From a virus: a stretch of 64,000 nucleotides of DNA. Made by a program: the position numbers and the translations under genes. The notes under the pieces are model-generated. The model was not told the origin of the DNA and made no database searches. It worked only from the letters and a program-made list of their open reading frames with translations. Location of the stretch: IMG/VR virus record IMGVR_UViG_3300047557_001530, positions 96,001 through 160,000 of that record, one strand, 5' to 3'. Below, in pieces: positions 4,677 to 43,111 of this stretch (position 1 is the stretch's first letter; each line of letters starts with the position of its first letter).

Positions 4677-4973
4677 ATGTCTATTCAAGATTTACCAGAT
4701 GATGAAAAAGATGCTATTGATATTTTAGCAAAAGCTGGATACCTCAAAGCTTCCAATGATAAAATTGAAGTATCTTTAGAATCATCAAATACTTTAAATA
4801 TTCAACCAAAGGGAAATGTTTTTGGAGCAAAAGTAAAAGTAGAAAATGATGGAAGCATCACACCTACTCTCACTTTCGACACAAAAAAATTAAGAGATTC
4901 TAAAAGAATAGATGCTAAATCTGCTGTAGATCAAGCACTAGAAGATTATCTGAATGGTGGAGGCAATGTTTAA
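4677..4973 (+). CDS. Hypothetical protein
   Basis: ORF from MSIQDLP, downstream of an ATAAATA late promoter. Confidence 0.6.
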   Translation: MSIQDLPDDEKDAIDILAKAGYLKASNDKIEVSLESSNTLNIQPKGNVFGAKVKVENDGSITPTLTFDTKKLRDSKRIDAKSAVDQALEDYLNGGGNV

Positions 4974-5439
4974 ATTATTTGAAGTTAAGGAAGGAAAATT
5001 AAAAATTTTACCTTCATTAAGGTTTAAAAATATTGGTGGGTTTATTATAATTTCAATTGTTGCAATTATAATTGCTAACTTATCAGGAGCATTGAAAGTA
5101 AATGAAAGAGATCTTTGGAAATTTTATAATCTTTTAATTAATAGACTTGGTTTACAACAGGAACTACCTGACATAAGAGATCATGAAAAACAACTTGACG
5201 CTCAAATTGAATTGGAAGTTGATAAAGCAATTCGTGATTACGAACGCTTGACAGGAGACGATGGAACTGTTAGAATACCACCACCACGACGTTCCGAGAA
5301 ACCAGTAGACACCTCGGTGTGCTACACTCCTGAATGTCAAGCACTTGGAGGAGAAATCCGAATCTGTGCTCCATGGGTTCCAGATTGCCCCTTGACAAAC
5401 CAAGAACAATCTGGTACAATAAACAAGTTGTCTCAGTAG
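4966..5439 (+). CDS. Hypothetical membrane-anchored protein with Cys-rich C-terminus
   Basis: One TM helix; CYTPECQALGGEIRICAPWVPDC; stop codon lies inside tRNA-Arg. Confidence 0.7.
   Translation: MFKLFEVKEGKLKILPSLRFKNIGGFIIISIVAIIIANLSGALKVNERDLWKFYNLLINRLGLQQELPDIRDHEKQLDAQIELEVDKAIRDYERLTGDDGTVRIPPPRRSEKPVDTSVCYTPECQALGGEIRICAPWVPDCPLTNQEQSGTINKLSQ
5392..5420 (+). promoter_or_regulatory. sigma70-type promoter for tRNA-Arg/Val
   Basis: TTGACA-17nt-TACAAT. Confidence 0.85.
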
Positions 5440-5552
5440 CTCAGTGGAATAGAGCAACCGCCTTCGGGAGTTCCGAGTGGACTTAATGGGGAGCATTACC
5501 CTATACTCTCATAAGCGGTCGGTCGCTGGTTCAAATCCAGCCTGAGACGCCA
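5430..5552 (+). tRNA. tRNA-Arg(UCU) interrupted by a 46-nt insertion (5466-5511) between anticodon nt 35 and 36
   Basis: Acceptor GTCTCAG/CTGAGAC, G73, encoded CCA; D-loop with A20; anticodon stem ACCGC/GCGGT; removing 5466-5511 gives loop CT-TCT-AA. Confidence 0.9.
5466..5511 (+). other. Miniature structured tRNA intron-like element, copy 1
   Basis: P1 GGGAGT/ACTCTC, P2 TCC-GAGT-GGA, linker CTTA, P3 ATGGGG-AGCATTA-CCCTAT, terminal A; homologous to 41685-41729. Confidence 0.85.
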
Positions 5553-5624
5553 GGGCGATTAACTCAGCGGTAGAGTAATTCCCTTACAAGGAATGAGTCA
5601 CTGGTTCGATTCCAGTATCGCCCA
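5553..5624 (+). tRNA. tRNA-Val(UAC)
   Basis: Cloverleaf GGGCGAT/ATCGCCC; loop CT-TAC-AA. Confidence 0.95.
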
Positions 5625-6741: not shown

Positions 6742-6895
6742 CAGCACTGGTCGGGACCCCCTCGATTGTCCTCGTCGGATTGGACATTAAATATGCCGAC
6801 TGGTGCGGATGGGGTTTTTAACTCCCGCCGAGTTTCCAATTTTCTCGTAATCAAAATTGGTGGCGAGCCTGCTCACGGGGATTGACCGTCCCCAC
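6722..6895 (+). ncRNA. manA-like structured RNA
   Basis: Recognised from memory of cyanophage manA RNAs: ATATGCCGACTGGTGCGGATGGG...CCCGCCGAGTTTCC...GGTGGCGAGCCTG; next to a tRNA; boundaries approximate. Confidence 0.65.
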
Positions 6896-18020: not shown

Positions 18021-18044
18021 CGAATTATTCAAATATATAAAATA

Positions 18045-18153
18045 CGTTCATCCCTCTGGGACGGAAGTAAGCCGACTCGGAACGCATCGTTCATTTACAA
18101 AATTCTACACAAAGTATCGAATTTTGTAAACGGAAAAGCCGACTGAAGGAACG
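18045..18153 (+). ncRNA. Tandem glutamine riboswitch aptamers (glnA / Downstream-peptide type)
   Basis: CGTTCA-TCCC/GGGA-CGGAAGTAAGCCGACTCGGAACG, then CGTTCA-long hairpin-CGGAAAAGCCGACTGAAGGAACG, upstream of a YRG-motif gene. Confidence 0.8.
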
Positions 18154-40876: not shown

Positions 40877-41143
40877 ATGAAATACACATTATCTCAAGCA
40901 TATTGTTTTTATATGGGTGAGGTTGTGCGTATGTATTTCATACAAGGTCTTCCATATACTTTTGATGAATTACCTCAATTAATACAAGATCATCCTTCAG
41001 TTCAAACTGAAGCACTCGGTCATCGTGATTACGATGATGAAGATCTTTATAAAGTATCAAATTATTTAATTATGGAAGAAATGCATCCACTTATGTTTGA
41101 ATTGCCGATAGAAAATCCAGATTTATTACCTAAAGATGATTAA
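40877..41143 (+). CDS. Conserved cyanophage hypothetical protein
   Basis: MKYTLSQAYCF...MYFIQGLPYTFDEL...EEMHPL. Confidence 0.75.
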   Translation: MKYTLSQAYCFYMGEVVRMYFIQGLPYTFDELPQLIQDHPSVQTEALGHRDYDDEDLYKVSNYLIMEEMHPLMFELPIENPDLLPKDD

Positions 41144-41660
41144 CGAATTTTTTAGATTAATTGAGGGAAGATTTGAAAATAAAATTCAAGCAATGTCTCA
41201 TCCTTCAAAGTATGCTATGATTCGTGTCACCCATGTTAATTTGGGTGGCGGATTAATATATGGTGAACAAGCATACAATTATCAATTACATAAACCATAT
41301 CGTCAATTTGTTCTTGAACCTAAACAAGAAGATAATCAAATTAGAATTTATAATTACGAAATTATTGATAAAGAAAATTATACTGGATTTCAAAGGCTTG
41401 ACGAAATTGACCGTGATGTGCTAAAATTGAAACCTGGCTGTGATGTCGTGGTCAGTCAACAAGGGGAGTCTTTTGTGGGGGGTATACAAGGATGCGATTG
41501 TATGGTAGACTGGATGGGTCGTCAAACCTACCTCCAAAACGAAATTGAGTTGACACCAACTCACTATTACGTTATGGACCGAGGATTCTGTGCTGAACAC
41601 AAACATCAGCTTTGGGGTTCTAAATATGGTAGGTTTGAATTTGTTAGAATGCCTCTTTAG
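41136..41660 (+). CDS. cpeT: CpeT/CpcT-type phycobilin lyase
   Basis: N..QA..HP, EQAYNY...PYRQ, GCD, DRGF....WGS. Confidence 0.88.
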   Translation: MINEFFRLIEGRFENKIQAMSHPSKYAMIRVTHVNLGGGLIYGEQAYNYQLHKPYRQFVLEPKQEDNQIRIYNYEIIDKENYTGFQRLDEIDRDVLKLKPGCDVVVSQQGESFVGGIQGCDCMVDWMGRQTYLQNEIELTPTHYYVMDRGFCAEHKHQLWGSKYGRFEFVRMPL

Positions 41661-41767
41661 CTCAGTGGTAGAGCACCCGCCTTGGGTCTTGAAAGTTCTT
41701 TAAATAGGGAGCATTACCCTATAAGATCATAAGCGGGCGGTCATCAGTTCAAATCTGATAGGGGGCT
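41651..41767 (+). tRNA. tRNA-Thr(UGU) interrupted by a 45-nt insertion (41685-41729) between anticodon nt 35 and 36
   Basis: Acceptor GCCTCTT/AGGGGGC, U73; stem CCCGC/GCGGG; removing 41685-41729 gives loop CT-TGT-AA. Confidence 0.9.
41685..41729 (+). other. Miniature structured tRNA intron-like element, copy 2
   Basis: P1 GGTCTT/AAGATC, linker ..TTTAA, P3 ATAGGG-AGCATTA-CCCTAT, terminal A. Confidence 0.85.
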
Positions 41768-42023: not shown

Positions 42024-42068
42024 AACACCCCTCAAGCCTCTCAACGATGCTCAAACAGAGGGGTCACT

Positions 42069-43016: not shown

Positions 43017-43107
43017 GGGAGAGTGGCTACTGTTGGCAATATGTGTGGCTGCGGTCTGTAAAACCGTTACATCGGAACCATCGGGGGTTCAATTCCCTCC
43101 TCTCCCA
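43017..43107 (+). tRNA. tRNA-Tyr(GUA) with enlarged D-arm
   Basis: GGGAGAG/CTCTCCC; loop CT-GTA-AA; long variable region. Confidence 0.85.
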
Positions 43108-43111
43108 CCTT

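Follow-up and report, generated by a model that had tools for sequence, protein, structure and literature searches.

A miniature tRNA-shaped insert within the anticodon of two cyanophage tRNA genes and a possible third route of tRNA splicing

To our knowledge, self-splicing is the only mode of removal accepted for bacterial tRNA introns. In MALAT1 mascRNA and in mitochondrial tRNA punctuation, cleavage at +1 and after the discriminator base frees a tRNA-like element from a longer transcript. The flanks are not re-ligated in those systems, whereas the insert described here would need joining with single-base precision. RNA ligases that serve in tRNA repair are common among large phages. The processing of tRNA mimics in lncRNAs is mentioned in PMC4810234. 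In T4, Pnkp and Rnl1 repair tRNA-Lys cleaved by PrrC (PMC3400036); as proposed for our locus, an ATP-dependent ligase joins anticodon-loop halves, and the same gene kit is present. However, in T4 a host defence nuclease makes the break and nothing is removed, while here a gene-encoded insert would be excised and the ends would need no healing. The nearest relatives in print are the 'enigmatic' tRNA introns of Lak megaphages (Devoto et al. 2019, PMC6784885, Fig. 4, Table S6), of which one may encode a tRNA according to the available part of that paper. The same part neither proposes nor shows an excision mechanism or splicing of these introns, and the available text of the Lak preprint places a T4-type RNA ligase in Lak genomes.

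The window analysed here is a 64,000-nt stretch (C1:96001-160000) of a 171-kb linear virus record which is 88% complete. Since the record contains psbA, ferredoxin, CpeT and a wcaG RNA together with close protein matches to Synechococcus phages, we assigned it to the T4-like cyanophages. Rfam matches in the window are the wcaG RNA (6766-6874), a glutamine riboswitch (18043-18088) and an abiF RNA (42028-42064). At 43017-43109, ARAGORN called a tRNA-Arg(GCG), yet the anticodon arm reads GUA and Rfam did not pick the gene up at gathering score; it is probably a tRNA-Tyr with an unusual D-arm.

The tRNA-Arg(UCU) gene of this phage occupies 5430-5552 on the plus strand and is split within the anticodon. 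Exon 1 (5430-5465) runs from position 1 to C35 and exon 2 (5512-5552) from U36 to the encoded CCA, with a 46-nt tRNA-shaped insert, a putative intron, between them (5466-5511). When the insert was taken out, ARAGORN gave a clean call of a 77-nt tRNA-Arg(UCU) with A20, G73 and CCA. The spliced form aligned with the intron-less Arg(UCU) genes of cultured cyanophages (84% to S-SZBM1), which are followed immediately by tRNA-Val, and this alignment sets the junction at 35/36. Other registers, which would give the anticodons CAU or UAU, were ruled out by homology to the intron-less Arg(UCU) genes. A preliminary description of this DNA had proposed a 46-nt insert between C35 and U36 of an otherwise perfect tRNA-Arg behind a strong promoter. 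The ARAGORN call on the spliced form and the cyanophage alignment agree with it, and the sigma-70-type promoter-like site at 5392-5420 (plus strand, extended -10) scores 11/12. This site is positioned inside the 3' end of the upstream ORF. An intact tRNA-Val(UAC) (5553-5624, plus strand) follows directly, in the same gene order as in the intron-less cyanophages. Rfam detected a tRNA with about 46 additional bases in the anticodon loop at 5430-5552 and returned no family for the insert itself. ARAGORN missed the unspliced Arg gene, or mis-called it when the intron search was on, and the second split gene, tRNA-Thr, was likewise missed or mis-called. AGA makes up 54% of the Arg codons of the genome, and the 88%-complete genome contains no intact Arg(UCU) or Thr tRNA gene, only the split copies.

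The tRNA-Thr(UGU) gene (41651-41767, plus strand) is interrupted at the same 35/36 site by a 45-nt insert (41685-41729) that is 67% identical to the first and has the same 6+6 bp layout. Three pairs of the closing helix differ between the two inserts in a compensatory manner. A 17-nt core of the Arg insert recurs exactly in the Thr insert, where 0.08 matches would be expected even at 3 mismatches, and close homologues occur in independent samples (L136 with 93% identity, L118 with 85%, and L258 and L255). Since the core recurs exactly and the homologues come from independent samples, the insert is neither a chance sequence nor an assembly artefact; it is real, conserved and unusual. Both split genes overlap the end of an upstream ORF by 10 nt (ORFs at window 4954-5439 and 41136-41660). 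A covariance model (R1) retained only 5 pairs and found no third copy in the genome.

The insert has the shape of the top half of a tRNA. Its acceptor-like helix is formed by a 5' strand (5466-5471), of which the first base corresponds to tRNA position +1, and a 3' strand (5505-5510) followed by a lone discriminator-like A (5511). The predicted RNase P cut falls at 5465/5466 and the predicted RNase Z cut at 5511/5512. The helix encloses a small D-loop-like hairpin with an N-R-G-U tetraloop (5472-5481), in which an A at the position-18 equivalent accompanies G55, and a T-arm-like hairpin (5486-5504) with a 6-bp stem ending in G-C and a 7-nt loop (5492-5498), all on the plus strand. In the folded precursor, pair probabilities were 0.83-0.96 for the closing helix and 0.75-0.88 for both hairpins, so that the ends of the insert pair and enclose two hairpins as first described; an alternative hairpin (5484-5488/5494-5498) had a probability of 0.04. 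The folding energy of the lone insert is ordinary (z -0.93), and therefore the structural evidence comes from covariation and not from energy.

Nine cyanophage-type members, laid out from their exon boundaries without an aligner, kept 53 of 54 closing-helix pairs and 54 of 54 pairs of the T-like stem. Within the same columns G-C, C-G, U-A and A-U alternate in a compensatory way, and slid registers gave 21-35 of 54 pairs. With 107 of 108 pairs kept, the conserved structured element of the preliminary description stands. All nine share one plan: the 5' strand of a 6-bp closing helix leads into a linker containing the N-R-G-U hairpin, then come a stem of 6 bp that closes a 7-nt loop and the 3' strand of the helix, and finally an unpaired base. 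The geometry of an RNase P/RNase Z substrate, 12 bp (6+6) from the T-loop to the helix end plus one overhang base, was found in 9/9. In a set of 24 short inserts taken from diverse phages, the location of the T-loop was used to predict the partners of the first six bases. Of these pairs, 119 of 144 form, against 59 +/- 5 (maximum 79 in 10,000) in the shuffled control; the search patterns had left this pairing unconstrained. A linker GG accompanies U55 in 12/14 and G55 in 2/10 of the inserts, counts that are indicative only as the sequences are related, and where position 55 is G the linker GG is replaced by AG. This 18/55 covariation suggests that the insert may keep the D-loop/T-loop elbow. 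The insert is thus a minimal tRNA mimic with an acceptor-like helix, a T-like arm, a D-loop-like hairpin and one discriminator base.

The window insert departs from a tRNA in its helices of 6+6 bp, instead of 7+5, and in its loop, where C56 and the purine at 57 are retained while A54, G55 and U58 deviate from a canonical T-loop. The loop at 5492-5498 is nevertheless homologous to the canonical T-loops of L062, L076 and L080. The tRNA body of L118 is identical to that of L080 and its insert has the same T-like stem, but it carries the deviant loop of the window, and this comparison ties the two loop types together.

The loop, with CAU in its middle, can also be read as anticodon-like, as would suit an insert from which no working tRNA arises. 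The RNA would then stay whole as a tRNA-shaped decoy or protein-binding RNA, or be cut without re-joining, and the insert would be a parasite tolerated in a tRNA gene that the phage can do without. We regard this as unlikely. Phage tRNAs are often dispensable, inserts move independently of the tRNA bodies, and splicing of the insert is a prediction from sequence. However, the homology to the three canonical T-loops and the stem shared by L080 and L118 rule out an fMet anticodon mimic. The anticodon halves and the cloverleaf are intact in 36 genes with compensatory anticodon-stem changes, and the exact +1 and N73 boundaries would be purposeless without excision. A decoy role is further disfavoured because the genome has no Ro60/TROVE gene of the kind expected alongside a Ro60-binding tRNA-like (Y-type) RNA.

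Group I introns (RF00028) resemble the insert in lying inside the anticodon and in having endonuclease-carrying relatives (here L272). They are, however, hundreds of nucleotides long (over ~200) and have a catalytic core, a U at the 5' site and a terminal G, all of which are absent from the window insert. The base before the inserts is C35 (Arg) or G35 (Thr), not U, both inserts end in A, and no RF00028 match was found in the window or the genome. Bulge-helix-bulge introns of archaea and eukaryotes are also short, non-catalytic, placed in the anticodon arm and removed by proteins, as predicted here, but they are found mainly at 37/38 and depend on the splicing endonuclease, whereas the window insert is at 35/36 and is itself tRNA-shaped. 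Their motif has a 4-bp central helix and two 3-nt bulges at the junctions; in the required register that helix would form 1/4 pairs in Arg and 3/4 in Thr, and the fold is a 4x4 internal loop. The insert therefore belongs to neither type, as had been proposed at the outset, and it falls outside the intron and ribozyme families described in Rfam. In the same survey, tRNA-Ile(UAU) genes at L004, L011, L015 and about 40 further loci, several on giant-virus (GVMAG) contigs, carry ~40-nt inserts near 37/38 which are probably ordinary eukaryote-type introns.

A self-excising small ribozyme would agree with the compact, conserved three-way junction and with the known bacterial tRNA introns, which are self-splicing (PMC3400036). 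We consider it very improbable, since nearly every conserved position is explained by the tRNA-like structure. The insert has only 46 nt, with ~30 of them in helices, and its conserved unpaired bases are the D-loop/T-loop positions. It gave no group I, hammerhead, HDV-like, twister or other Rfam match, with none at E up to 10, and it has neither the U before the 5' site nor the terminal G. Moreover, relatives hold complete ordinary tRNAs at the same site.

Like the window insert, the Lak introns sit in the anticodon region of phage tRNA genes that are intact in other respects, and their T-arm and acceptor-like helix end just before exon 2. As far as the available parts of the paper go, the design of the Lak A1 'Tyr' intron matches that of L269, and on our reading this intron lies at 35/36 of an Asn gene. 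By our reading of Table S6, the Lak introns are ~80-115 nt long with a 25-30-nt leader, whereas the window insert has 46 nt and is leaderless; moreover, position 72 is the partner of its first base, and its loop deviates at A54, G55 and U58. The window insert is a leaderless, minimal relative of the barely described Lak introns. The new small intron class of the preliminary description is therefore not wholly unreported, because its longer relatives are the Lak introns (PMC6784885 Table S6); the part that stands is the minimal form, for which, as for any mechanism, we found no description in a literature search covering mostly journals outside subscription.

We scanned for tRNA halves 30-65 nt apart with the insert left unconstrained. 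The patterns required U36-A37-A38, and one scan additionally required a T-loop 12-15 nt upstream; neither feature therefore counts as independent evidence. When the inserts were removed in silico, all 36 products were called as tRNAs. Relatives with a canonical T-arm as the second hairpin were found in Arg (L062, L080) and Thr (L076) genes, and at the same site Asn, Lys and Arg genes hold minihelices whose ends are 4 nt long. The short inserts form a continuum with complete CCA-ended tRNAs, which are nested at 35/36 of Asn or Arg genes at L254:2158-2232, L278:1087-1159, L261:402-478 and L271:11234-11310. In longer forms, among them the published Lak introns, a leader of 25-30 nt precedes the tRNA-like part (L264, L265, L269, L273, L279, L285, L295, L298, L301, L304 and Lak Table S6). 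The leader resembles a small covarying pseudoknot with stems of 3 bp and 5-6 bp.

The cultured phage Atu_ph07 (MF403008; G016; L094, L119) has two split tRNA genes, a tRNA-Lys with a 48-nt minihelix (~68176-68258), where GenBank has no feature, and a tRNA-Thr with a 33-nt plain hairpin (335125-335192). In G009, an Arg(UCU) gene (C1 ~275618) is interrupted at 36/37 by a minihelix with a perfect N73-CCA at its end. An Armatimonadota MAG includes a contig, possibly from a phage, whose Arg(UCU) gene has an insert of the same kind (L415:3291-3369). Among 185,579 prokaryote genomes the close subfamily was not found, and a looser pattern gave one MAG contig. Across viral contigs, the exact 17-nt core gave one chance match in a coding region, the exact-flank pattern none, and the loop-anchored scan three already known members and chance matches only. 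At least two true members (L133, L136) stood amid ordinary tRNAs in the metagenome scan, and the family counts are lower bounds.

Identical tRNA bodies carry inserts that are 61% identical, and inserts 85-89% identical sit in bodies that are 81-82% identical. Since the histories of insert and body differ, the element moves or is exchanged. In L272:4750-5251 (minus strand), a ~500-nt anticodon-loop insert contains a PD-(D/E)XK endonuclease gene (PF11645, E 6e-33) and, after it, an entire tRNA, and L292 has an apparent HNH remnant, which suggests homing. The element probably arose from a whole tRNA inserted in the anticodon and was later trimmed. L062:5825-5867 and L080:2352-2395 show a 6-nt direct repeat, in which the last bases of exon 1 recur as the 5' strand of the closing helix; no such repeat is seen in the two inserts of the window.

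From these comparisons we infer how the insert would be transcribed and excised, by which nucleases, how the exons would be ligated and what purpose this would serve. We propose a third route of tRNA splicing, in which host RNase P and RNase Z excise a miniature-tRNA intron and a phage ATP-dependent ligase seals the exons. The probability of this reading is roughly 0.55, jointly with its view of the family, which would range from 43-nt minihelices through whole nested tRNAs to endonuclease-carrying mobile forms in many phage lineages. The precursor would be transcribed from the promoter at 5392-5420, and the host would treat the inner element as a CCA-less pre-tRNA. RNase P would cut before +1 and leave a 3'-OH on exon 1, RNase Z would cut after N73 and leave a 5'-phosphate on exon 2, and the tRNA halves would be held together by the acceptor and anticodon stems. 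Such ends are a substrate of ATP-dependent ligases and not of RtcB. The phage RNA ligase, Rnl1 or the DRB0094-type, would then join C35 to U36 without end-healing. As the ends of the insert coincide with RNase P and RNase Z sites, a feature of the tRNA mimic that the preliminary description overlooked, a dedicated nuclease would be unneeded.

The known properties of the enzymes are consistent with the proposed route. RNase P uses the stacked T-stem and acceptor as a ruler that starts at the elbow, while RNase Z, which binds the elbow, processes precursors that lack CCA (PMC4810234). The acceptor and T stems suffice for RNase P, and minihelices serve as its substrates (PMC11221534). The cut of RNase Z falls after N73, the discriminator, leaving a 3'-OH on the tRNA side, and some enzymes cut after CCA (PMC7479834). 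Rnl1 joins tRNA halves of this kind (PMC3400036). Against the route, the insert departs from a tRNA in its 6+6 helix split and its deviant loop. The leader has 4 and the trailer 3 unpaired bases before the anticodon stem, and this shortness may hinder both nucleases. Many 4-nt overhangs are other than CCA, and the first pair is mismatched in those inserts. The 25-30-nt leader of the Lak-type relatives means that RNase P alone cannot set their 5' site; the pseudoknot-like leader is a candidate for setting it and is possibly catalytic.

The genome encodes Rnl1, PNK kinase, PNK phosphatase and a DRB0094-type ligase outside the window, 4.6-8.5 kb past its end (G000 C1:164627-168539). An ATP-dependent RNA ligase was found above cut-off in 9/9 mini-insert carriers at least 79% complete, and RtcB in 0/39 carriers. 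Among intron-less cyanophages chosen by tRNA similarity, 1/11 had an ATP-dependent RNA ligase; B23 and S-CREM1 have an RNA ligase and no insert of this pattern. The association of ligase and insert is confounded, as the controls are marine cyanophages and not size-matched phages. We compared the ORFs of the genome with the other carriers (tblastn E 1e-5), setting aside overlapping shadow frames and tRNA-region artefacts. The only ORFs common to at least two carriers and absent from S-SZBM1 and S-PM2 were the two ligases and the PNK kinase; Rnl1 matched 7 carriers and the kinase 2. The splicing endonuclease (PF01974) and RtcB (PF01139), as well as RNase Z, HARP, Ro60/TROVE and group I introns, are absent from the 88%-complete genome, and therefore the nucleases would be those of the host.

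The complete kinase, phosphatase and Rnl1 kit would also serve a different arrangement, in which an unrecognised endonuclease dedicated to the task, from the phage or the host, binds the elbow mimic and leaves cyclic phosphate and 5'-OH ends that PNK heals and Rnl1 seals, as they do when T4 repairs tRNA. The leader-bearing relatives and those with 4-nt ends other than CCA, which fit RNase P and RNase Z poorly, also favour it. Nevertheless, this seems rather doubtful to us. No candidate nuclease was common to the carriers and absent from the intron-less S-SZBM1 and S-PM2 (tblastn E 1e-5), the genome lacks splicing endonuclease, HARP and RNase Z domains, and the kinase matched only 2 carriers compared with 7 for Rnl1. 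A dedicated endonuclease also leaves it unexplained why both ends lie at tRNA maturation sites. The preliminary description had proposed self-excision or a dedicated endonuclease plus ligase; the ligase does co-occur, but no dedicated nuclease was found and self-excision is unlikely.

As the proposed route predicts, the overhang of the insert mostly follows the CCA convention of the phage's own tRNA genes. In this genome, 1/18 intact tRNA genes encodes CCA and the insert ends at N73. The overhang is 1-2 nt where tRNA genes lack CCA (encoded in 0/7 in G001, 1/11 in G003, 0/5 in G004 and 0/30 in G005) and 4 nt where CCA is encoded (26/28 in G010, 22/22 in G012, 5/5 in G011, and others), with G013 as an exception. 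This correspondence could mirror ancestry rather than mechanism. Positions 73-76 of the tRNA-Ala of this genome are the same four bases as the splice junction.

Under the proposed RNase P/RNase Z route, the element would move between tRNA genes and might persist because the tRNA-repair ligase of the phage makes it nearly harmless. As to the suggestion that the insert could hide the anticodon from host nucleases, a spliced tRNA would be exposed to them anyway. Splicing by tRNA-maturation enzymes and a ligase, which is not yet known for any tRNA, would be new in kind if true. Phages would then combine maturation enzymes borrowed from the host with a repair ligase of their own to splice tRNA, the 'enigmatic' Lak introns would be explained, and phage RNA ligases would gain a second job. 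Phage tRNA sets would be under-annotated, as the two genes missed or mis-called by ARAGORN and the Atu_ph07 gene without a GenBank feature illustrate. The insert would then represent a minimal, portable splicing module of less than 50 nt.
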